Source: Patescibacteria group bacterium (GTDB taxonomy: Bacteria > Patescibacteriota > Patescibacteriia > Magasanikbacterales > GWA2-37-8). Taken from it: a DNA stretch of 64,000 bases. Positions 1,844-38,307 of this stretch are shown one piece after another. The notes beneath the pieces were generated by a model that ran no database searches, had not been told where the DNA came from, and saw only the letters and a program-made list of their open reading frames with translations. Positions within the stretch are counted from its first letter, which is position 1; each line of letters begins with the position of its first letter. The stretch is from positions 20,614-84,613 of the forward strand of contig JAKLGL010000001.1 in assembly GCA_022710645.1 (NCBI GenBank), read 5' to 3'. The translations under genes and the position numbers were made by a program.

Positions 1844-3307
1844 ATGTTTGAACAATCATTAAAAAATATAGACGATATTCTTCACCAAGATTCTGGTTGT
1901 GCTACTGAACTTGATTATATTGAACAAACCTCATGGATTTTATTTTTGAAATATTTGGATGATTTGGAAAAAGATAGAGAAACCTCGGCAAAATTGGCAG
2001 GTAAAAAATATGAATATATTATTGACCCTCAATATCGTTGGGAAAAATGGGCGATGCCAAAAAATAAAGATGGCAAAATTGATCACAACACTGCTTTGTC
2101 AGGGGATGATTTGAAAGATTTTGTTAATGGTAAATTATTTCCTTATCTTAAAAAATTTAGAGCAGATGCATCAAGTCCGGATACGATTGAATATAAAATT
2201 GGGGAAATTTTTAGTGAATTAAAAAATAGAATAGAGAGCGGTCACAGACTTCGTGAAATTTTGGAAATAGTGGACGCGCTACATTTTCGTACTGATGCGG
2301 AAAAACACGAACTTTCTCATCTTTATGAAAGCAAAATTGCCAAAATGGGCAATGCTGGACGTAATGGTGGGGAATATTACACTCCAAGACCGCTTATTCG
2401 CACGATTGTAAAAATTGTCGCGCCGAAAATTGGAGAGAAAATTTACGACGGAGCATGTGGCAGCGCCGGCTTTTTGGTGGAAGCTTTTGATTATCTCAAA
2501 TCTGAAAATAAAGATCGTTCTACAAAAAATGATGAAATTTTGCAAAAGAAAACTTTTTACGGCAAAGAAATAAAATCCCTGGCTTATATCATCGGCACAA
2601 TGAATATGATCTTGCATGGCATTGAAGCGCCAAACATCACTCATACCAATACCTTGGCGCAAAATATCAATGATATTCAAGAAAAAGACAGGTTTGATGT
2701 TATCCTTGCCAATCCGCCATTTGGCGCAGGTATTGGCCGAGAAATTCAACAAAACTTTCCCATCAAAACAGGTGAGACTGCTTTTCTTTTTCTTCAACAC
2801 TTTATCAAAATTCTCAAAGCCGGTGGGCGAGCGGGTATTGTTATCAAAAATACTTTTCTTTCCAATACCGACAATGCTTCGGTTAGTTTGCGTAAACTAC
2901 TTTTAGAAAATTGTAATTTGCATACGATTTTAGATTTACCAGGTGGCGCTTTTCAAGGCGCTGGTGTAAAAACTATAGTTTTATTTTTTGAAAAAGGAAA
3001 ACCAACGAAAAATGTTTGGTATTACCAACTCAGCCTTGATCGAAATCTTGGCAAAGGTAATCCACTTAACGAAAATGACTTAGCGGAATTTGTAAAATTG
3101 CAAAAAACAAAAGCAGACAGTGAAAACTCTTGGAGTTTAGATGTGTCTAAAATTGATCAAAATACTTTTGATTTATCAGTTAAAAATCCGAATAAAAAAG
3201 AGGAAAATGTTTTGAGAGAACCGAAGGAGATTTTGGAGGAGATGGAAGAAATAGACGAGGAAAACAAAATAATATTTAAAAAAATCAAAAATTTAGTACA
3301 TGACTAA
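1844..3307 (+). CDS. hsdM: type I restriction-modification system, DNA methyltransferase subunit M
   Basis: HsdM-like N-terminal domain. The N6-adenine methyltransferase motif NPPFG is present, as is an AdoMet-binding DGACGSAGFL motif. Confidence 0.9.
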   Translation: MFEQSLKNIDDILHQDSGCATELDYIEQTSWILFLKYLDDLEKDRETSAKLAGKKYEYIIDPQYRWEKWAMPKNKDGKIDHNTALSGDDLKDFVNGKLFPYLKKFRADASSPDTIEYKIGEIFSELKNRIESGHRLREILEIVDALHFRTDAEKHELSHLYESKIAKMGNAGRNGGEYYTPRPLIRTIVKIVAPKIGEKIYDGACGSAGFLVEAFDYLKSENKDRSTKNDEILQKKTFYGKEIKSLAYIIGTMNMILHGIEAPNITHTNTLAQNINDIQEKDRFDVILANPPFGAGIGREIQQNFPIKTGETAFLFLQHFIKILKAGGRAGIVIKNTFLSNTDNASVSLRKLLLENCNLHTILDLPGGAFQGAGVKTIVLFFEKGKPTKNVWYYQLSLDRNLGKGNPLNENDLAEFVKLQKTKADSENSWSLDVSKIDQNTFDLSVKNPNKKEENVLREPKEILEEMEEIDEENKIIFKKIKNLVHD

Positions 3308-4802
3308 TGCTGATATTAAAATTTATTTTTCTGATTTTTTTGAAGTAGATCATAATAAATTAGAAAGTTATGGCGCTCTTGATATCTCGTTATTGTCAGA
3401 TAATCCAGCTTTTATTGACCCATTTTTAATATTTTATAGTAAAAATAAAGATTATCAACAATTACACCAATCTATTGTCAATTATTTAATCTTTTTAAAA
3501 AAACAAAGTGACGAAGGTAATTTTTCTAATTTATTTTATACATTTCCAGAAGTAAATGAAGTTTGGCTTGGTTTTTCAAAAAGTGGTAATAAAGGACTCG
3601 GTTTAGGACCATATTTTGCTAATGAATTAAATGAAAATCTAATCAATATTTTTAAGGGTAATAAAAATAAAATTACAAAAAGTACACACATTGAAAAACT
3701 TTGTATTATTGGAGAGCGAATTGGAGCGGATAAAATAAGTGATTTTACACTAAATTTGATAAAACATTATTTAGTAAAGTATACTGAAAAATTTGCCATT
3801 GAAAATTTAGACAATAAATACATTTCAAAATTTAGAATATCAAAATTATTTTTTGATTTCGAAAAAAGTAATTGGGTTGATGGTGAAGCTGTCCTTCCAA
3901 TAAATCCGCATGATAAGTCGAACTATGTTTTATTAACACCAAAAGATATTCTAGTGAAAGAGGAAGGGTGGATTTCAGTTAATGATTTTTTAAATAATGA
4001 CGGTTTAATTATAAGTAATATTTCAAATGATGATTTGCGTTATAAAATAAACCAATACTTTCTTTCTTTGATTCCTGATAAGCGTAATAGAAATGGTAAA
4101 CCTGAAAAAGACTTATCGAAGAAAAATACGAGAAATGCAATGAAAGAAACGGCAAAGAAATATCCCGAATTAATCGATTATTTTATTAAATGTAAAGAAG
4201 AAAACGGGCAGGGTGCGGTTGAAGCTAGTTTAGTTGATAATGACTTTTTGAAACAAGTGTTCTATCTTGGTATTAAAGCTATTACTAAAAATTTAAAAAT
4301 TGAAGGTTTTTATAAAACAAATATAAAAGACAATTCATTTTTAGAAACAATAGATAAAATTAAAAAATTTAAGTATGTAATGGAAAAAAGAGATGGGTAT
4401 ACTGTATTTTGGGATGATAAAAAATTAAGAAAATTTAAAGAGCCAGATGTAGACAAAATGATTGATTTAGTTTTCGCTTCTTCTGATTTTTCCATAGATA
4501 AACAAGTTAATAACGGAAGAGGCTCGTCGGATATTAAGGTTTCAAAAGGATCCGCTGATTGTACTATTATAGAAACAAAACTTGCAAAAAACCCTCAATT
4601 AGAAAATAATTTACAAAAACAGTTAAATATTTATAAAGAAGCAAATAATACAACAAATGGTGTTTATGTAATTTTATATTTTAATGAAGATGAATTTAAA
4701 AAGGTGCAAAAAATATTCAAAAAATTAGGAATAGATGATTGTGTTGACAAATGGATATTTTTAATTGATTGTAGAAAGAAAATATCCGCCTCAAAGGCTT
4801 AA
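3300..4802 (+). CDS. uncharacterised 500-aa protein embedded between hsdM and hsdS, with a C-terminal PD-(D/E)xK-like motif (putative nuclease-fold defence protein)
   Basis: It overlaps the hsdM stop by 8 bp, which suggests translational coupling. The C-terminus has '...EPDVDKMIDLVF...(about 30 aa)...CTIIETKLA', a D...ExK pattern. There is no Walker A. Confidence 0.55.
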   Translation: MTNADIKIYFSDFFEVDHNKLESYGALDISLLSDNPAFIDPFLIFYSKNKDYQQLHQSIVNYLIFLKKQSDEGNFSNLFYTFPEVNEVWLGFSKSGNKGLGLGPYFANELNENLINIFKGNKNKITKSTHIEKLCIIGERIGADKISDFTLNLIKHYLVKYTEKFAIENLDNKYISKFRISKLFFDFEKSNWVDGEAVLPINPHDKSNYVLLTPKDILVKEEGWISVNDFLNNDGLIISNISNDDLRYKINQYFLSLIPDKRNRNGKPEKDLSKKNTRNAMKETAKKYPELIDYFIKCKEENGQGAVEASLVDNDFLKQVFYLGIKAITKNLKIEGFYKTNIKDNSFLETIDKIKKFKYVMEKRDGYTVFWDDKKLRKFKEPDVDKMIDLVFASSDFSIDKQVNNGRGSSDIKVSKGSADCTIIETKLAKNPQLENNLQKQLNIYKEANNTTNGVYVILYFNEDEFKKVQKIFKKLGIDDCVDKWIFLIDCRKKISASKA

Positions 4803-4809
4803 TATTTTT

Positions 4810-5922
4810 ATGAAAAATATTATTACTGATAAAAATAATTGGCAAACAAAAAAACTTGGTGAACTTTGCGATATTACAACTGGCAATTCAAATACAGTCG
4901 ATGCTGTCAGTGATGGTCAATATGCTTTTTTTGATCGATCGAAAATAATTAAAAGGAGTCATAATTTTTTGTTTGATTCGGAAGCGTTGATTATTCCAGG
5001 AGAAGGTGCTGAATTTTTCCCTAGATATTATTCAGGAAAATTTAATTTACACCAAAGAGCTTATGCTTTGTTAAATTTTAATAAAAATACAAATGTTAAA
5101 TTTGTAGAATATTTTTTAATTTTTGAACACAAATATTTTGAAAGGGTTGCAGTTGGAGCTACTGCAAAGTCTTTAAGAAGAAGACATTTTGAAGATTTAG
5201 AAATTCCGCTTCCACCCCTCCCCGAACAACATCGCATCGTAAAAATTTTAGATGAAGTTTTTGAAAATATTACGGAAGCGAAAGAAAACGCTGAAAAAAA
5301 TCTTCAAAATTCAAAAGATCTTTTTGAATCGTATTTACAGAATGTATTTGCGAAAAAGGGGAATGGTTGGGAGGAAAAGACTTTAGGCGAGGTGTGTAGA
5401 TATGATAAAACACCATATAAAAAAAGTAATTTACCCTATGTTGGACTTGAAGATATAGAATCAAATTCAGGTAAATTTTTAGGTTCTTTGGATTCAAAAA
5501 AAGTAAAAAGTAATACTTTTCATTTTACACCAGAACATGTTTTATATGGCCGTTTAAGACCTTATTTAAATAAAGTGTTACTTCCAGATTTTGAAGGTCA
5601 TTGTTCAACAGAGATTTTTCCTATAAAGCCCAGCAAAGATTTATATAGAGGGTTTTTATTTTTTTGGCTTATTTCTAAAAAAATAGTTAAAAAAATAAAT
5701 GCCACTTGGACTGGAGCTCGAATGCCTAGGGCAAACATGAATGAAGTATTAGATTTTATAATCCCAATACCATCAATATCCGAACAAAAATCCATCGTTG
5801 CCAAACTTGACGCGCTTTCGGAACAAACTAAAAAACTGGAAGAAATTTATAAACAAAAATTAGCGGATTTGGAGGAATTAAAAAAGTCGGTGTTGAAAAA
5901 GGCTTTTAGCGGGGAATTATGA
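4810..5922 (+). CDS. hsdS: type I restriction-modification system, specificity subunit S
   Basis: Two target-recognition-domain halves separated by the conserved central 'LPPLPEQHRIVKILDEVF' helix, with a C-terminal 'LEELKKSVLKKAFSGEL'. The start was chosen at MKNIITD; the ORF track's 4765 start overlaps the preceding gene. Confidence 0.85.
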   Translation: MKNIITDKNNWQTKKLGELCDITTGNSNTVDAVSDGQYAFFDRSKIIKRSHNFLFDSEALIIPGEGAEFFPRYYSGKFNLHQRAYALLNFNKNTNVKFVEYFLIFEHKYFERVAVGATAKSLRRRHFEDLEIPLPPLPEQHRIVKILDEVFENITEAKENAEKNLQNSKDLFESYLQNVFAKKGNGWEEKTLGEVCRYDKTPYKKSNLPYVGLEDIESNSGKFLGSLDSKKVKSNTFHFTPEHVLYGRLRPYLNKVLLPDFEGHCSTEIFPIKPSKDLYRGFLFFWLISKKIVKKINATWTGARMPRANMNEVLDFIIPIPSISEQKSIVAKLDALSEQTKKLEEIYKQKLADLEELKKSVLKKAFSGEL

Positions 5923-6473
5923 AAGCCAGTGAATATCAAAATCAAATCGCAGAACTTTTAAAACAAATTTTTCCGGCTGAATTGGTAAAAAAGGAATGGG
6001 ATTCGTCTGTGACTTTTAATGACTTGTCTCATAATAAAATGGTTTATGCTCCACGTATAGATGTTGCAATTGGCCCGTTTAATAATCGTTTTAATTTAGA
6101 TGTTGGAGAAATGCCGAGCGATTTGATGAAAAAACATCCTTTTACTAGAATGATGTTTGAAAGGCATTATAATGATATAGATGATTTTGATAAGGTATGG
6201 AATAGTTTTTCTCGTTGTTATTTAGCGATCGAAGTGGAGTTTAGTGGTTCAGCAAAACATATTTTTGGTAGCATAATTAATGCAGTTACAAATGGATCTT
6301 TAGCTTTTATTATTACAAATAAAGAAAATTACAGTAAAGTAGATCGAATTATTAAGTATATTTGGCGACAAGAAAATCAAGAGGTAATAGAATTAAATAC
6401 TTTGAAAAATTTATTGGTATTTGAGGAAGGGGAATTTTTGGAAGTATTGAGGGAATATTTAAAAAAAGTATAA
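5919..6473 (+). CDS. hypothetical protein translationally coupled to hsdS (ATGA overlap), with a possible restriction-endonuclease-like fold
   Basis: 184-aa ORF whose start overlaps the hsdS stop by 4 bp. It has 'YAPRIDVAIGP' and 'LAIEVEFSGSAKH' acidic motifs. The fold assignment is speculative. Confidence 0.5.
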   Translation: MKASEYQNQIAELLKQIFPAELVKKEWDSSVTFNDLSHNKMVYAPRIDVAIGPFNNRFNLDVGEMPSDLMKKHPFTRMMFERHYNDIDDFDKVWNSFSRCYLAIEVEFSGSAKHIFGSIINAVTNGSLAFIITNKENYSKVDRIIKYIWRQENQEVIELNTLKNLLVFEEGEFLEVLREYLKKV

Positions 6474-6557
6474 AATAGGTATAACTAGACTTATTTAAGA
6501 AATTTTATACAAGAGAATTGTAAACAATTTATCTATAATTAGCCAAAAAAAGCAGTA

Positions 6558-6617
6558 TTGACATTACTTATATAATGTAATATACTAGTAATATAACATA
6601 CTAGTATAATCTAATAT
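6558..6617 (+). promoter_or_regulatory. Promoter region (TTGACA-17-TATACT, with a second TATAAT at 6605-6610) carrying two copies of the 8-bp palindrome TACTAGTA
   Basis: TTGACA at 6558-6563. The palindromes are in 'tatactagtaatataacatactagtataat'. The ATG at 6618 has no RBS and sits about 7 nt after the TATAAT, so the mRNA may be leaderless. Confidence 0.45.
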
Positions 6618-8051
6618 ATGAATCAAGAATTAATACAATATTTACAAAAACAAATAAGAACAGTTGAAGATAGGTTATATAAATATACTCACAATACCCA
6701 AGGAGGTAAATTACCTCAACGTTTTTTGTTTGTTAAAATTCAAAAATATCTCAATGATTTTTTAGGTAAAATTTCAGAAAACAGATTAATTATTATTCCT
6801 GGATTACGAGGTGTAGGTAAAACTACTTTGATGGCTCAAATTTGTAGTGATTTAATTGTAAATAAAAAAAATGTAAAAACATTATTCCTGTCATTAGATG
6901 AAGTAAAAAATCTTTTTAATGTTGGGATATCTGAAGTTATGCAAGCATATGAAGAAATTTTAGGTGAAGATTTGGAAAGTTTATCAGAAAATGTTGTTAT
7001 TTTTTTCGATGAAGTGCAAAGTGATCCAACCTGGGCAAAAGCATTGAAAATACTTCATGATAAAACATCCAAAATATTCTTTTGTTGTACAGGATCTTCA
7101 GCAGTAGTATTGCAATCAACCCCAGATATAGCTAGAGGTAGGGCTATATTTGAAAGAATGACCCCGATGTGTTTTATGGAATTTGAAATGGTTAAAGACA
7201 AAGTTTTTCCTACAAAACAATTAAAAAAAGATATATGGGATGCTGTTTATTTTTCCAAAGATGCTGTAGAGGTTTATGATAAATTATCAAAACTACAAAG
7301 TTTGGTAAATAATTATTGGAGCAAGGTGGATAGAAGAGATATGGAGAAATTTTTAGCATATGGATCTTTGCCATTTACTTTACAACTTCCAAACGAAACT
7401 ATTATTAATGATTCTATTTCTTTGTTATTGGATGGAATTATTAAAAAAGATTTACCGATGCTGAATGGTTTTGATGTTAAAACGTTATCACAAGTCAAAA
7501 GATTACTTTTTATTCTTGCTGAAAATGACACGACCAGTATCAATAAATTAGAGGAAATATTAGGTATTGATAGACTAACTATAGCGAGTTTATTGGATGC
7601 TTTAGAAAAAGCAGAATTGATTATAAAAATTTCGGCTTATGGTTCCAATATGTCGGTGGCAAAAAAACCAGCAAAATATCTTTTTATGTCTTCAGCTGTG
7701 CGTATGTCATTTTTTTCAATATCTGGAAATGAAAATACTTTTTCTACAAGAAAAGGAAAGCTCTTGGAAGATTCTGTAGGTACACATTTATATAGAGAAT
7801 TTATACTTAAAAATGATGGCGCTTTACGATATGATAGTTCGCAGAATGGCGCAGATTTTATTTTGCAAATTGCTAATAAAAAACAGATAATAATTGAAGT
7901 TGGTTTGGGTAAAAAAGACAGAAAACAAATTTTAAATAGCATGGAAAGAATTGATTCAGATTATGGCATAGTTTTTTCAAGTAATCCTTTAGTTATTGAT
8001 CAAGATAAAAAAATAGTCAATGTACCTTTGGATTATTATTTTTTAATGTAA
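6618..8051 (+). CDS. AAA+ ATPase of the AAA_14/DUF4143 (COG1373-like) type, embedded in the type I R-M locus
   Basis: Walker A 'GLRGVGKTTL' and Walker B 'VIFFDEVQ'. The C-terminal region 'NGADFILQ...IIIEVGLGKK' resembles the DUF4143 nuclease-like module. Confidence 0.7.
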   Translation: MNQELIQYLQKQIRTVEDRLYKYTHNTQGGKLPQRFLFVKIQKYLNDFLGKISENRLIIIPGLRGVGKTTLMAQICSDLIVNKKNVKTLFLSLDEVKNLFNVGISEVMQAYEEILGEDLESLSENVVIFFDEVQSDPTWAKALKILHDKTSKIFFCCTGSSAVVLQSTPDIARGRAIFERMTPMCFMEFEMVKDKVFPTKQLKKDIWDAVYFSKDAVEVYDKLSKLQSLVNNYWSKVDRRDMEKFLAYGSLPFTLQLPNETIINDSISLLLDGIIKKDLPMLNGFDVKTLSQVKRLLFILAENDTTSINKLEEILGIDRLTIASLLDALEKAELIIKISAYGSNMSVAKKPAKYLFMSSAVRMSFFSISGNENTFSTRKGKLLEDSVGTHLYREFILKNDGALRYDSSQNGADFILQIANKKQIIIEVGLGKKDRKQILNSMERIDSDYGIVFSSNPLVIDQDKKIVNVPLDYYFLM

Positions 8052-8055
8052 TCGT

Positions 8056-10395
8056 ATGAATGAATCAGAAACACGAGCTGAACTCATTGATCCCAAACTG
8101 AAAGCTAGTGGTTGGGGAGAAATAGAGGGCTCAAAAATTTTACGTGAATTTCGAATTACTGATGGACGTATTCAAACAGGTGGCACACGCACAAAGCCGG
8201 AAATAGCCGACTATATTTTGGTTTATAAAAATCAAAAGCTTGCGGTGATTGAAGCAAAAAAAGAAAGTTTGTCGGCTAGCGAGGGTGTAGCTCAAGCTAA
8301 AACTTATGCGGAAAAATTACAGATTGATTTTACTTATTCCACCAATGGCAAAGCAATTTACGAAATTTCAATGAAAACAGGTAAAGAAGGATTAGTGCGA
8401 GATTTTCCGACCCCCGACGAATTATGGAATAGAGTAAATGCAAAATCAAATGAATGGAAAGAAAAATTTGCAACTGTGCCAAACGAGGGAGATTATGGTA
8501 GTCGTTATTATCAAGAGATTGCGATAAACAATGTTTTGAATGCTGTGGCTGAAGGTAAAAATAGAATTCTTTTGACTATGGCAACTGGTACGGGTAAAAC
8601 CGCGGTAGCTTTTCAAATTGCTTGGAAACTTTTTCAAACGCGTTGGAATTTACAAAGAAATGGCGAACGCCGACCGAGAATTTTGTTTTTAGCTGATAGA
8701 AATATTTTGGCCGACCAAGCTTACAATGCTTTTTCTGCTTTTAAAGAAGACGCGCTTGTTCGAATTAATCCACTTGATATTCGTAAAAAGGGCAAAGTGC
8801 CAACTGGTGGAAGTATCTTTTTTACAATTTTTCAAACTTTCATGAGTGGTCCGAATAATACTTCATATTATGGAGATTATCCAGCGGACTTTTTTGATTT
8901 TATTATTATTGATGAGTGCCATCGTGGTGGAGCAAATGACGAAAGTAATTGGCGAGGAATTATGGAATATTTTGCTCCAGCAGTTCAACTTGGTTTAACC
9001 GCTACCCCACAAAGACGAGACAACGTTGATACCTATAGATATTTTGGGGAACCAGTTTATATTTATTCCCTCAAAGAAGGCGTAAACGATGGATTTTTAA
9101 CCCCGTTTAAAGTAAAAAGAATCAAAACTACCTTAGATGACTATGTTTATACGGTAGAAGATCAGATTGTGGAAGGGGAAGTTGAAGAAGGAAAAATTTA
9201 TGAAGAAGAAGATTTTAATAGAATTATAGAAATTCAAGAAAGAGAAGCAAAACGTGTAAAAATCATGTTTAGTGAAATAAATCAAAATGAAAAAACCATT
9301 GTGTTTTGTGCTACTCAAAGTCATGCTGCGGCTGTTCGCGATTTGATCAACCAATTGAAAGAAAATAAAGATCCAAATTATTGCGCTCGTGTAACAGCCA
9401 ATGATGGCGCGCGAGGAGATCAATTTTTACGTGATTTTCAAGATAATGAAAAAACTATTCCAACAATTTTGACCACTTCGCAAAAACTCTCAACTGGTGT
9501 GGATGCTCGCAATGTTCGCAATATTGTGTTGATGCGACCGGTAAATTCCATGATTGAATTTAAACAAATTATTGGACGCGGAACTCGTCTTTTTGATGGA
9601 AAAGAATTTTTTACTATTTTGGATTTTGTAGATGCTTATAAAAATTTTTCTGATCCAGCTTGGGACGGAGATCCTGTAGAAGTGATTGAAGAAAAACCTA
9701 CTAAAAAGAAGGTTGATAAAATAAAAGAGCCCAAAGCAAAATACGAACCGATTAGCGAAGAAGGAGAAGGCGAAGAACCAAAAAAGAAATTGGTTATTAA
9801 ATTAAGAAATGGAAAAGAACATGAAATTCAACACATGGTCTCAACTTCTTTTTGGAGTGCAGATGGCAAACCAATCACTTTGCAAGAATTATTAAATAGT
9901 ATGTATGAAAAATTGCCAGAATTTTTCAAAAATGAAGACGATTTACGTAGAATTTGGTCTAACCCTATTACTCGTAAAGCATTATTAGAAAAAATAGCTG
10001 ATGCAGGATATGGAAGAGAAGAATTGGAAACATTGCAAAAAATGATTGATGCAGAAAATAGCGATTTATTTGATGTTTTGTCTTTCTTTTTATATTCAGT
10101 TAAACCGATCACTAGAGAACAAAGAGTGGAAAAATCAAAGAAAACCATTTTTGATAAATTAGACAATGAACAAAAAGAATTTTTAGAATTTGTTTTGCAA
10201 AAATATATTGATAATGGCGTGGAAGAGTTGGAAGAAGAAAAATTACCTTTGTTGTTGAATTTAAAATATCATGCGATTGCCGATGCTATTAATCAGCTTG
10301 GTGATGTGGATAAAATTCGTTCGGTATTTTTTAGTTTCCAAAAGGAACTATATACTAAAGAAAAAATTAGTAATTTGTTTAGATGTTTTATTTAA
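8056..10395 (+). CDS. hsdR: type I restriction enzyme, R subunit (EcoEI-like short form)
   Basis: N-terminal 'ETRAELIDPKLKASGWG' HsdR_N motif. SF2 helicase motifs 'MATGTGKT' and the DECH box 'IIDECHRGG'. The C-terminal domain is EcoEI-R-like. Confidence 0.9.
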   Translation: MNESETRAELIDPKLKASGWGEIEGSKILREFRITDGRIQTGGTRTKPEIADYILVYKNQKLAVIEAKKESLSASEGVAQAKTYAEKLQIDFTYSTNGKAIYEISMKTGKEGLVRDFPTPDELWNRVNAKSNEWKEKFATVPNEGDYGSRYYQEIAINNVLNAVAEGKNRILLTMATGTGKTAVAFQIAWKLFQTRWNLQRNGERRPRILFLADRNILADQAYNAFSAFKEDALVRINPLDIRKKGKVPTGGSIFFTIFQTFMSGPNNTSYYGDYPADFFDFIIIDECHRGGANDESNWRGIMEYFAPAVQLGLTATPQRRDNVDTYRYFGEPVYIYSLKEGVNDGFLTPFKVKRIKTTLDDYVYTVEDQIVEGEVEEGKIYEEEDFNRIIEIQEREAKRVKIMFSEINQNEKTIVFCATQSHAAAVRDLINQLKENKDPNYCARVTANDGARGDQFLRDFQDNEKTIPTILTTSQKLSTGVDARNVRNIVLMRPVNSMIEFKQIIGRGTRLFDGKEFFTILDFVDAYKNFSDPAWDGDPVEVIEEKPTKKKVDKIKEPKAKYEPISEEGEGEEPKKKLVIKLRNGKEHEIQHMVSTSFWSADGKPITLQELLNSMYEKLPEFFKNEDDLRRIWSNPITRKALLEKIADAGYGREELETLQKMIDAENSDLFDVLSFFLYSVKPITREQRVEKSKKTIFDKLDNEQKEFLEFVLQKYIDNGVEELEEEKLPLLLNLKYHAIADAINQLGDVDKIRSVFFSFQKELYTKEKISNLFRCFI

Positions 10396-21016: not shown

Positions 21017-21054
21017 CAGATGATTATAGCATAAAACAGAAGATTTGTCAATAT

Positions 21055-30319: not shown

Positions 30320-31045
30320 ATGTCCTATTATAATACTTATCTCAAAAAATTGAACTCTGTCTGTAAACGGAAAAAACTTGATTTGATAGAAATCGGTAGA
30401 GTTGGATTTAAAAAAGAATATCCGATTTATAAAATCGTTATCAATCCGCTTAAAAAGGGGAGAGTTGTTTGTTTTTCCGCCGGAATTCACGGATATGAAA
30501 TCGCCGGACCTTGGGCGGTTTTGGAATTTTTGAAAAAACTGAATGTTGAAAAATTAAAAAACAAACTAATCATTTTTCCAGTTGCCAATCCGTCCGGCTT
30601 TGACAAAAACATAAGACATAATTGGCAAAGAAAAAATCTGAACGCTTTATTTTGCAGTAAAAAAATGCCGGAAGAAAATAAAATTTTGTTGAATGCCTTA
30701 AAAAATGAAAAGGTACGCTTTTTCCACGCTTTACATGAAGATGTAGAAGAAAAATCTTTTTATCTGTATAATTTTGAGAAAAAGCCGGAGAAAATTTATC
30801 GTGATATTATCAAGCTTGCCAAAAAATACTTTCCAATAAATTTGGCAAAAGAAATTTATGGTGATAAATCTGTCGGAGGATTAATAATTAATCGAGCAGA
30901 TGGTTCTTTTGAAGATAGATTGTTTCGCGAAGGCACGCCATATAGTATGTGTACGGAAACTCCGGGAAAACACTCTCTTAAAAAACGCGTTGAATTAAGT
31001 GTAGTAATAATGGAAAAAGTGATTAAATTTATTAATAAAAAATAA
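30320..31045 (+). CDS. M14-family zinc carboxypeptidase-like protein (MpaA / succinylglutamate-desuccinylase-aspartoacylase superfamily)
   Basis: 'FSAGIHGYEIAG' is the HxxE zinc motif, and 'FHALHEDVE' holds a second His. Adjacent to PBP2. Confidence 0.5.
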   Translation: MSYYNTYLKKLNSVCKRKKLDLIEIGRVGFKKEYPIYKIVINPLKKGRVVCFSAGIHGYEIAGPWAVLEFLKKLNVEKLKNKLIIFPVANPSGFDKNIRHNWQRKNLNALFCSKKMPEENKILLNALKNEKVRFFHALHEDVEEKSFYLYNFEKKPEKIYRDIIKLAKKYFPINLAKEIYGDKSVGGLIINRADGSFEDRLFREGTPYSMCTETPGKHSLKKRVELSVVIMEKVIKFINKK

Positions 31046-31054
31046 ATAATTGTT

Positions 31055-31315
31055 ATGACTTTAAATGAATCATTTAAAAAAGCGGAAGAAATATTAGGCC
31101 CAACCAAAAAAGACATTGATACTGCAATTTTAAGTTTACAAGAATCTGCTACTAAAATTTGGCAGGCTGTGGAAAATGATCAAAAAGACAAAATAAATAC
31201 TCGCGCGGCGAACGCTTTGATTTCTGTATTTTATGTTATGCGTGAACTTGGAATTAATGATCCGGAAAATTGTTTGTCCATGAGATTTGAAGAAATTAAA
31301 AACGAAAATAAATAA
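31055..31315 (+). CDS. hypothetical small protein
   Basis: 86 aa with no diagnostic motif. Confidence 0.35.
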   Translation: MTLNESFKKAEEILGPTKKDIDTAILSLQESATKIWQAVENDQKDKINTRAANALISVFYVMRELGINDPENCLSMRFEEIKNENK

Positions 31316-31317
31316 TA

Positions 31318-31676
31318 TGATTAATATAAGTCCCATTAAAAAAATCATTGAAAATAACGCCGTGGCTTTTGCAACAGTTAATAGATTTGGCAAGCCGAAT
31401 GTTATCGGTACGGCCTGTCTTAAAGTTGTATCCAAAAATCAGGTTTTGATTACCGACAATTACATGAAACAAACAAAAGCCAATATAATGAAAAATAATA
31501 ATGTTTGTTTGGCGGTTTGGGATAAAAATTGGAAGGGCTTTAAAATTATCGGTAAAGCCAATTACTATTCCGTCGGCAAATGGAAAGAATTTGTTAAGGA
31601 AATGCCGGAAAACAAGGGAATGCCAGCCAAAGGCGCCATAATTATTACCGTTTCCAAAATAATTAAACTTGGATAA
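31318..31676 (+). CDS. pyridoxamine 5'-phosphate oxidase-like FMN-binding (split-barrel) protein
   Basis: 'AVAFATVNRFGKPNV...VCLAVWD' is typical of the PNPOx-like family. Start at MINISP. Confidence 0.6.
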
Positions 31677-31775
31677 AATAATATAATTTTTAACTTCATT
31701 GGTAAATTTAAACATCCCGATAAAACTACGGGGTGTTTTTTTTGGCTAATATTAGTACAAACCCTCATTAAACTA

Positions 31776-31804
31776 TTGACAAATTACCATTTTTGTGCTA
31801 TAAT
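31776..31804 (+). promoter_or_regulatory. consensus sigma70 promoter TTGACA-17-TATAAT
   Basis: Exact consensus hexamers with a 17-nt spacer. It lies upstream of the GC-rich 290-aa gene, whose RBS is AAGAGGTG. Confidence 0.6.
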
Positions 31805-31863
31805 CAACGGTTATTTCAAAATAACACAGTTCTTTTTATAAACAGTCCAAAAAGAGGTGTCTC

Positions 31864-32736
31864 ATGAACAACCAGAGCATTCAAAACCTGGAAAATCTTT
31901 TCCGGGAGGAACTTTCGAAGATGAATCTCGACGGCCGGCTCATGGATGAAAATCTGTGCGCTTTACTTAGCAACCAGGAGGAGGTTCGGAAAGAAATTGT
32001 CTATACCTTACTCAAACACCGGTTCTGCACGAAGTTCGGCTATGACCGCGAATACTTGGCCATAGTCAACAAAGATCACGAACAGCAGGTTGAATTGGGA
32101 AAGAAGAGGCTGGAAATGGTTCTTACATATTTCCCCGAACTCAAATTCGTCGACAACCATATCTTCGACCGACCGCTGGGGCTGGCCGAAGGTTACTTCG
32201 TCTTCCCTAAATGGGAAAAAATCGCGGGTTCGCCTTCCGTCGCGGCAAAGCGGATCGATGTCGTGTTGGAGGAAACCAAGCAAGCCAGTTGCTGTTCCTT
32301 CCATAATCTCGAACTCCGAGTCAACGAGAGAACCAGGGAGATGTACAAGAAACTGTGCGAACAGCAAAAAGGCGATGTTCTCATCGTGCCCGCACAACTG
32401 GGTGGAAAGCATCGTGACATTTCCGTCGTATCGGCCAGAGACAAATTCGCCGACAACGAGTTCGGTCTTATGCTCTACATGGGTGGCCTTTCCATGCTCA
32501 CCACTCCCGAACTGACAAAGCCCGCGACTCTTTTTCTGAACTATTATATCTGCTGCGGGGAAAATTATCTGGACGGAGAGATGGGCCTCAACTCCTGGAA
32601 CCACTCGCCGATATATTTCCAGCAGGAAATGGGCGGCAGACTCAGGATGACCCTGGGAGGAATTGCCCACGAAATTTCCAAAAACGGCGATTATCATGAA
32701 CGCTACGGCTGTATGACTGGATTTGTCCCGGAATAA
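31864..32736 (+). CDS. hypothetical protein (290 aa) on a GC-rich island
   Basis: GC is above 50% against a background near 35%. It has a dedicated consensus promoter and a strong terminator at 32763-32791. No motif recognised. Confidence 0.55.
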   Translation: MNNQSIQNLENLFREELSKMNLDGRLMDENLCALLSNQEEVRKEIVYTLLKHRFCTKFGYDREYLAIVNKDHEQQVELGKKRLEMVLTYFPELKFVDNHIFDRPLGLAEGYFVFPKWEKIAGSPSVAAKRIDVVLEETKQASCCSFHNLELRVNERTREMYKKLCEQQKGDVLIVPAQLGGKHRDISVVSARDKFADNEFGLMLYMGGLSMLTTPELTKPATLFLNYYICCGENYLDGEMGLNSWNHSPIYFQQEMGGRLRMTLGGIAHEISKNGDYHERYGCMTGFVPE

Positions 32737-32762
32737 TATCTCGCCCGGACTGTTTTTCCAAA

Positions 32763-32791
32763 GGGCATTCGCAAACGGATGCCCTTTTTTT
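32763..32791 (+). terminator. intrinsic terminator (gggcat...atgccc followed by T8)
   Basis: Read from the sequence. The next promoter, TTGACA-17-TACAAT at 32793-32821, follows immediately. Confidence 0.6.
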
Positions 32792-32887
32792 CTTGACACT
32801 GTTTTATTAAAAAGGTACAATAAAATAAACATATTCCGAAAACTTTCGGAATCTTATTTTTTACTAAAATTGAATTTAAAAAGAAAT

Positions 32888-37335: not shown

Positions 37336-38307
37336 ATGCAAAAATCAAATACATCGCTAATAAAGCATATCCCAACCTTTTTGGAATACTGTGAGGTAGA
37401 AAAAGGTCTTTCTCCCGTATCCTCCAAAAACTATCACAATTTTTTAAAAGTTTTTATTGAATGGCTTGATAAATCCAAATTAAACAATCTCTTACCACAC
37501 GAATTGACACCTGAACATATTTGGAGTTACCGCCTCTTTTTATCTCGTAAACAGGACTACAAGGGCGCCTATCTCAAAAAGACTTCTCAGAGCTATTATC
37601 TTCGAGCTTTACGAAATTTCCTGAAATATCTGACAGACAAAGACATTGTCACATTACCGTCGGAAAAAATAAAATTACCAAAATTGACTGATAAAGACAA
37701 ACAAATTAAATTTTTGAGTTTTGATCAGGTAGAAAAACTACTATCCATGCCAGACACTTCAAATACCGAAGGGTTACGCGATAGAACCATCCTTGAAGTA
37801 CTCTTCTCCACTGGTATGCGTGTCTCAGAGCTTACTTCGCTTAACCTAAAACAGTTTAATGTTAATGATTTAATAGCTGGAAAAATTCCAGATTTTACCG
37901 AACTTAATATTATAGGTAAAGGCGGTAAGATGCGCACGGTTTATTTTTCCAAAAGATCCCTGGAATGGTTGGCTAAATATCTCAAAGAACGCAAAGATAT
38001 GCTCCCTCCCCTGTTTATCAATTACTTCAAAGCTGCCAAAGACGAGGATGCCAGACGTTTATCACCCAGATCGGTTGAAAGTATCGTGCGTAAATATACG
38101 ATGATGGCCGGATTGCCGGTAGAAGCCACACCACATACTCTGAGACACAGTTTTGCCACTGATTTACTCTCCCACGGCGCTGATTTACGTTCAGTCCAGG
38201 AACTCTTGGGTCATAGCAATGTTGCCACTACTCAAATCTATACTCACGTAACCAACGCCGGATTAAAAAATGTTTATAAAAGCTTTCATAGTGGAGCGAA
38301 GAAATAA
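37336..38307 (+). CDS. xerD: tyrosine site-specific recombinase XerC/XerD
   Basis: Catalytic residues in context 'TPHTLRHSFATDLLSHGADLRSVQELLGHSNVATTQIYTHV'. Core-binding N-domain present. Confidence 0.85.
   Translation: MQKSNTSLIKHIPTFLEYCEVEKGLSPVSSKNYHNFLKVFIEWLDKSKLNNLLPHELTPEHIWSYRLFLSRKQDYKGAYLKKTSQSYYLRALRNFLKYLTDKDIVTLPSEKIKLPKLTDKDKQIKFLSFDQVEKLLSMPDTSNTEGLRDRTILEVLFSTGMRVSELTSLNLKQFNVNDLIAGKIPDFTELNIIGKGGKMRTVYFSKRSLEWLAKYLKERKDMLPPLFINYFKAAKDEDARRLSPRSVESIVRKYTMMAGLPVEATPHTLRHSFATDLLSHGADLRSVQELLGHSNVATTQIYTHVTNAGLKNVYKSFHSGAKK

Follow-up and report, generated by a model that had tools for sequence, protein, structure and literature searches.

ORF290, a divergent homologue of CPR DGR target proteins in a Magasanikbacteria lineage, probably uncoupled from DGR machinery

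A stand-alone GC-rich gene ahead of greA

Between a PNPOx-like gene and greA, the window (the whole stretch of 64,000 nucleotides analysed here) carries a gene of 290 codons, ORF290, together with its own expression signals. The features of this interval are as follows.

31677..32788, no strand assigned: lineage-specific insert of ~1.1 kb, from the stop of the PNPOx-like gene (31676) to the greA promoter (TTGACA at 32793)
31776..31804, + strand: sigma-70-type promoter, TTGACA-17-TATAAT with a TG-extended -10, 12/12 match
31854..31859, + strand: Shine-Dalgarno sequence GAGGTG, 4 nt 5' of the ORF290 ATG
31864..32736, + strand: ORF290 coding sequence, 290 aa, ATG start; its product is a divergent homologue of CPR DGR variable proteins, with a helical N-terminal region and a predicted C-type-lectin-like C-terminal half
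32569..32733, + strand: VR-equivalent region of ORF290, aligned past the motif that reads DCAGDEY in the family and ICCGENY here, with no sign of diversification
32760..32794, + strand: intrinsic terminator with a 12-bp GC-rich stem (32760-32787), a 4-nt loop and T7
32008..32832, - strand: antisense ORF of 274 aa in the exact codon-complement frame of ORF290, an artefact

An earlier note on this DNA had described a 290-aa reading frame in an autonomous transcription unit with an exact promoter, a good ribosome-binding site and a strong terminator, and all of these elements are present in the form claimed. The terminator hairpin has a predicted energy of -19.3 kcal/mol (z = -3.3), and the ORF290 start codon is backed by the N-terminus of the protein, which reads MNNQSIQ where family members, introduced below, read MTTQSIT. 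The arrangement TTGACA-17-TATAAT occurs exactly three times in the 64-kb window compared with 0.02 occurrences expected from shuffles, and is therefore beyond chance. With its extended -10 it is the strong-promoter type of the host and is not peculiar to ORF290; the two further perfect copies, both with the extended -10 TGCTATAAT, lie at 219 and at 21023-21051 (- strand). A candidate homology between the ORF290 promoter and those of its family was dropped, as TGCTATAAT also stands at these two unrelated promoters.

With respect to composition, the coding GC of ORF290 is 49.5%, so that the figure of above 50% given in the earlier note was a slight overstatement, compared with 35.9% for the window as a whole. 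GC at the three codon positions is 54/32/62%, and GC3 of the other genes in the window ranges from 17 to 49%. A codon-usage comparison, which the earlier note had named as a check, places ORF290 as the most atypical in synonymous codon usage among 52 window genes, at about 4 sd from the median (score -1.39; median -0.96, sd 0.10). The antisense ORF, which the note had likewise taken for an artefact, ends at the complement of the TTA that forms codon 49 of ORF290. Its frame is open because ORF290 uses no TTA, CTA or TCA codon past codon 49 (P = 4e-5 given the codon frequencies of the host), and protein homology is confined to the + strand.

An insert absent from syntenic loci

Using LysRS as an anchor, we scanned 80 syntenic loci with LysRS identities of 53-89%, and none of the 80 carries a homologue of ORF290. 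The gene order widespread at the locus is PBP2-greA-lysS-serS. In the closest relatives, L128 (LysRS identity 89%), L129 and L179 (86%), the order is PBP2-AstE-like-(PNPOx)-greA, and only ~100 nt precede greA where the window holds ~1.1 kb extra. In L179 nothing separates the PNPOx stop, GGATAA, from TTTTCTTGAC, the -35 element of greA, and homology to all three of these relatives picks up again at about position 32789 of the window.

Absence of the gene from all 80 syntenic loci, together with the ~1.1-kb insert at 31677-32788 facing ~100 nt in the closest relatives, supports horizontal acquisition, and the gain of ORF290 in this lineage is well supported. The gene thereby joins absence from relatives at the locus to atypical composition, as a horizontally acquired gene or genomic islet does. 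The acquisition proposed in the earlier note accordingly stands, and the homologues of like GC at the same locus in close relatives that it had named as counter-evidence were not found in the 80 loci. The traces that it had proposed to look for in the flanks did not appear: the insert junctions carry no integrase gene, tRNA or target-site duplication, and the search for terminal repeats gave just the 8-mer AATAATAT close to either end, a match that AT-rich DNA readily yields.

Two further observations concern the surroundings of the insert. An integrase-like gene with an XerC/D-type domain set (37336-38307) lies 4.6 kb downstream, with the conserved genes greA, lysS and serS intervening. In addition, the PBP2-greA junction (30320-32790 in the window) looks like an insertion hotspot: in most relatives greA comes straight after PBP2, in the closest ones an AstE/AspA-like gene and then a PNPOx-like gene stand between the two, and the window interval additionally holds an 86-aa ORF (31055-31315) and ORF290.

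A large family of CPR DGR targets

The earlier note had called ORF290 an orphan with no recognisable motif. The second statement holds for Pfam, NCBIfam, PADLOC, PHROGs and PDB sequences, which returned nothing usable for the single protein, and fails against an exhaustive search for remote homologues. A word-indexed search of 5.8 billion clusters matched the protein to itself alone, suggesting a true orphan, a reading that was overturned when exhaustive phmmer against 1.84 billion representatives recovered 639 relatives at E<=1e-3, including 116 at E<=1e-10. These relatives are mostly 220-300 aa long and 27-44% identical to the query, and E-values between ORF290 and family representatives run from 1e-19 to 1e-23. 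A family profile search extended the membership to at least 1524 clusters, all annotated as 'hypothetical', whose named members belong to Parcubacteria, Nealsonbacteria, Gribaldobacteria, Patescibacteria and a few other uncultivated lineages. Motifs common to an alignment of 74 family sequences are AEGWFAIPRW, VPAQFGLRHRGRS, NEFGLG, LLTHPER, DCAGDEY and GSASGF; Pfam gave no meaningful match for any of the 74 members, and a PDB profile search was likewise empty. With tblastn, 30 family members match a single region of the window, 31846-32733 on the + strand, and ORF290 aligns end to end with the target proteins of loci L002 and L212. Members in which a VR/TR pair has been demonstrated are thus homologous to ORF290 over its full length. 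Curated libraries (Pfam, NCBIfam, PADLOC and PHROGs) and the word-indexed search miss this gene despite the size of its family, and an apparent orphan becomes an interpretable gene.

What the family is can be settled from the neighbourhoods of its members. At six of nine homologous loci a nearby copy of the last ~100 nt of the gene differs from it only at adenines of that copy. For L002 and L209-L212 the copy of the last 100 nt is 80-86% identical and every mismatch falls on one of its adenines; these five loci and L006 served as positive controls for the TR search, at 100/100 positions identical or A. At L006, a repeat of the last 135 nt of the homologue sits 421 nt downstream and is followed by an RVT_1 gene; aligned with each other, the VR (6736-6870) and this repeat (7157-7291) agree at 117 of 135 positions, and 133 of 135 either agree or have A in the repeat. 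A bAvd gene and a reverse transcriptase are also present at five of the six copy-bearing loci, and at L209-L212 bAvd (PF22296) and RVT_1 adjoin the copy. Within one cluster at 90% identity, residues 1-245 are almost constant and residues 247-281 are hypervariable among the variants. The VRs of canonical members are depleted in adenine (A fraction 0.08-0.13, compared with 0.23-0.27 in the remaining gene) and enriched in codons ending in C or T (0.65-0.82). Because adenine-specific VR/TR pairs, reverse transcriptase with bAvd, a hypervariable C-terminus and adenine depletion are the defining signatures of DGRs, the family consists of domain-less variable (target) proteins of CPR DGRs, one of the most abundant hypermutation systems of candidate-phyla bacteria. 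It corresponds to the CPR 'clade 2' DGR targets, for which Roux et al. 2021 (PMC8144416) report no transmembrane or conserved domain that could be recognised.

In canonical members, the reverse transcriptase acts with bAvd to copy the template repeat, making errors specifically at adenines, and the copy goes into the 3' end of a Pfam-less gene for a protein of ~288 aa, whose last ~40 residues would form the diversified ligand-binding surface. The predicted architecture of the family is a helical region at the N-terminus and a C-type-lectin-like domain at the C-terminus, with no signal peptide or transmembrane segment. A C-type lectin fold is found in structurally characterised DGR variable proteins such as TvpA of Treponema denticola (PDB 2Y3C) and Mtd of Bordetella phage BPP-1. 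For ORF290 itself, an AF2 model from the single sequence reached a pLDDT of 33, so that AF2 confidence is owed largely to the family alignment rather than to the ORF290 sequence, and a Foldseek search against the PDB gave no significant match.

Individual loci vary in how complete the cassette is. L002 has a clear TR (7267-7406, 100/100 identical or A) 3' of the target and no called RT or Avd genes within 6 kb, which may make it a split or RT-less cassette. In L004 the VR is depleted in adenine, yet no TR was found within 12 kb. L007 (6001-7907) carries two tandem family paralogues of 289 and 297 aa, each followed by the same 3' repeat element, with no TR found within 12 kb for either; the test for adenine depletion, run on the first copy, was negative, and the VR-equivalent of that copy looks template-like, with many N, D and K residues. 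A scan of viral contigs with the family profile gave a single weak locus (L208) and no evidence for a mainly phage-borne family, though L209 and L210 adjoin prophage genes. At two independent loci a LOOT RNA (Rfam RF03000) lies within about 0.2-0.7 kb of the DGR cassette (L209:11488-11607 on the - strand and L212:9066-9185 on the + strand, 91 and 73 bits, respectively); none was detected in the window.

Canonical members also share two non-coding elements. One is a ~150-nt structured leader that has no Rfam match and consists of a long hairpin and a second small hairpin ahead of the ribosome-binding site (L002:5868-6003, L209:7868-8003, L210:7868-8003, L212:7868-8003 and L007:5868-6003). Compensatory changes occur in 12 of the 33 predicted pairs of the leader hairpin across these five sequences. 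The other is an array of CTTGA/CTTGG (CTTGR) repeats at ~10-nt spacing, in 2-4 copies per 90 nt, between the stop codon of the target and a downstream GC hairpin (L007:6871-6950 and 7908-7990, L002:6868-6930, L004:6883-6940 and L006:6868-6895). At L006 the sequence past the template repeat has no CTTGR repeats. The arrays may be a target-recognition element.

High GC is likewise a property of the family. All homologues examined in AT-rich hosts have 54-61% GC in flanks of 35-46%, and the family genes at L002, L004, L006, L007 and L209-L212 lie 15-25 GC points above their flanks with a GC3 of 65-84%. In the five cassettes with an RT gene, that gene has only 28-43% GC, and the target is 15-30 points richer. 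A and T are equally depleted in the family genes, and the excess is therefore not a product of adenine mutagenesis. Given that high GC runs throughout the family, it provides no clock for recent transfer, and composition is not independent evidence of recency. The compositional argument of the earlier note is weakened by the GC that the whole family shares; composition alone would have led to the right answer, acquisition, for an incomplete reason, which counsels caution. The covarying leader hairpin and the CTTGR arrays may be unrecognised cis-requirements of CPR DGRs that ORF290 has shed, and at the level of the family they may, like the GC excess, deserve separate attention.

Divergence and diversification status of ORF290

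ORF290 resembles the CPR targets in length (~288-290 aa), in its MxxQSI start and GF(L/V)P(Q/E) end (GFVPE in ORF290, GFLPQ in canonical targets), and in the motifs AEG(W/Y)F..P.W, VPAQ.G, NEFGL and C.G(D/E). Like them, it has no signal peptide and is encoded in a stand-alone GC-rich unit with its own promoter. In contrast, its identity to canonical CPR DGR targets is 27-34%, where these are 67-88% identical among themselves, and it is the most divergent family member sampled. ORF290 keeps 32 of the 46 columns that are at least 80% conserved, the lowest number among the 74 sequences (minimum of the others 35, median 43), and the retained columns include the invariant E199 and G232. Among the scaffold motifs scored (AEGWFAIPRW, PAQFGLRHRGRS, NEFGLG, LLTHPER, DCAGDEY and GSASGF), ORF290 reads TTPEL for THPER and ICCGENY for DCAGDEY; substitutions at positions conserved in 93% or more of the family are Q82R, I114F, Y124P, H214T and R217L. 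Unlike canonical members, ORF290 has neither the ~150-nt structured 5' leader with its long hairpin nor the 3' CTTGR array, and the lone CTTGA within 90 nt past its stop belongs to the greA promoter.

We found no sign that ORF290 is diversified. The best copy of its last 100 nt in the window matches at 48 of 100 positions, which is background level, and no TR-like copy of its 3' end exists in the ~83 kb that include L214 and L215. Queried by tblastn with the RTs of L006 and L209 and the Avd of L209, the window, L214 and L215 gave no match at E<=1, and the window with its flanks of ~10 kb has neither an RVT_1 or bAvd gene among the called genes nor a paralogue of ORF290. The VR-equivalent region shows no adenine depletion (A fraction 0.30, compared with 0.28 in the remaining gene) and no bias towards codons ending in C or T (0.56 in both). 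Hypervariability in the population, the third mark of adenine mutagenesis, is also absent from the ORF290 cluster, whose three sequences, present in several contigs of NCBI, JGI and ENA assemblies, are identical except for P249L; this near-invariance is weak evidence, since there are only three sequences and active clusters also show one dominant VR.

ORF290 is probably a new, divergent family member that is uncoupled from DGR activity, and the fuller account that we favour, and consider likely, is that of an inserted self-sufficient unit encoding a DGR-target-derived, C-type-lectin-like cytoplasmic binding protein that is not, or never was, diversified here and is under altered constraint. 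The gene would have entered the Candidatus Magasanikbacteria lineage as a self-contained cassette of ~1.1 kb (promoter, ribosome-binding site, coding sequence and terminator), landing between the PNPOx-like gene and greA and becoming uncoupled from the RT/bAvd/TR machinery, in a genome presumed to have no DGR elsewhere. Its product would most likely be expressed as a fixed-sequence binding protein in the cytoplasm, evolving under altered or relaxed constraint with an intact reading frame.

The words "or never was" take account of the relatives nearest by E-value, P0151 and P0002 (~480 aa, 1e-23), from a bacterium of 63% GC. These proteins have the core domain and motifs in common with ORF290; unlike it, they carry the core domain twice in tandem and have no helical region at the N-terminus. 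Their composition is that of the host, and no RT or TR was found within 8 kb. As the nearest relatives by E-value are duplicated-domain proteins with no DGR nearby, ORF290 could have its origin in a superfamily branch that was never diversified, rather than in a DGR target. At L213 (4075-6974), where the host has 63% GC, the best matches to ORF290 by E-value are two neighbouring proteins of ~480 aa, each with the family core domain in duplicate and with host-like composition, and no RT or TR lies nearby; they may be a non-DGR branch or a GC-rich source of the fold.

A stronger version of the history, which we think unlikely though worth keeping in view, takes ORF290 for a horizontally captured DGR scaffold that is strongly expressed, in which diversification has ended and a new fixed function has arisen, an exaptation of a hypermutation target. 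The frozen C-type lectin surface would then have been remodelled by an 8-residue insertion and by the loss of H214 and R217.

The divergence of ORF290 might instead mark decay. ORF290 would then be a one-time DGR target, or a family member, that has ceased to function and whose frame merely happens to be open. In favour of this reading, several near-invariant residues are replaced in this most divergent of the sampled members, the leader and 3' repeats of the family are lost, and the protein forms a singleton lineage among ~15 billion proteins. We nonetheless judge a decaying relic unlikely, given an unbroken frame of family-typical length (290 compared with ~288 aa), the conserved termini, the strong codon-position structure, and a perfect promoter with a good ribosome-binding site and terminator. 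The ~70% divergence accumulated with no stop codon or frameshift argues for selection on the reading frame.

Alternatively, ORF290 could be an active remote target on which an RT/Avd/TR cassette elsewhere in the genome acts in trans. Remote targets of DGRs are documented and are missed by local searches (Roux 2021, PMC8144416), and our searches around ORF290 covered ~83 kb of a genome that probably exceeds 0.5 Mb. L004, described above, offers a family precedent for a VR with no TR close by, and a GC-rich hairpin begins 24 nt past the ORF290 stop codon, as it does 3' of many VRs. Against action in trans stand a VR-equivalent with neither adenine depletion nor NNY codon bias, a protein that is near-invariant across assemblies, the lack of TR, RT and Avd in those ~83 kb, the missing CTTGR array that flanks VRs elsewhere in the family, and strong divergence around the IMH-equivalent, and we regard it as quite improbable.

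The suggestion that the GC-rich stretch is a structured non-coding RNA, or that the antisense ORF is the true gene, draws on the GC-rich islands that structured RNAs often form in AT-rich genomes and on the open frames of both strands, and is effectively refuted already by protein homology that is confined to the + frame (E = 1e-20 to 1e-23), by clear coding periodicity in the GC1/2/3 pattern, by the lack of an Rfam match at ORF290, and by codon choice, which accounts for the open antisense frame.

Under the favoured account of a DGR-uncoupled family member, ORF290 offers a natural comparison point, as an undiversified member that could separate scaffold residues from those involved in DGR targeting or ligand binding. 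It does not overturn the current understanding of DGRs.

Elsewhere in the window, the promoter at 219 precedes a 220-aa gene (309-971) with no Pfam match, 45% GC and a GC3 of 49%. Among the 51 other window genes its codon usage ranks second in atypicality, and it may be another acquired gene. A very AT-rich block at 1844-10395 (26-34% GC) encodes type I restriction-modification proteins HsdM, HsdS and HsdR, interleaved with a DUF8370/DUF8371 protein and an nSTAND3/AAA_14/DUF4143 ATPase, and looks like a defence islet.
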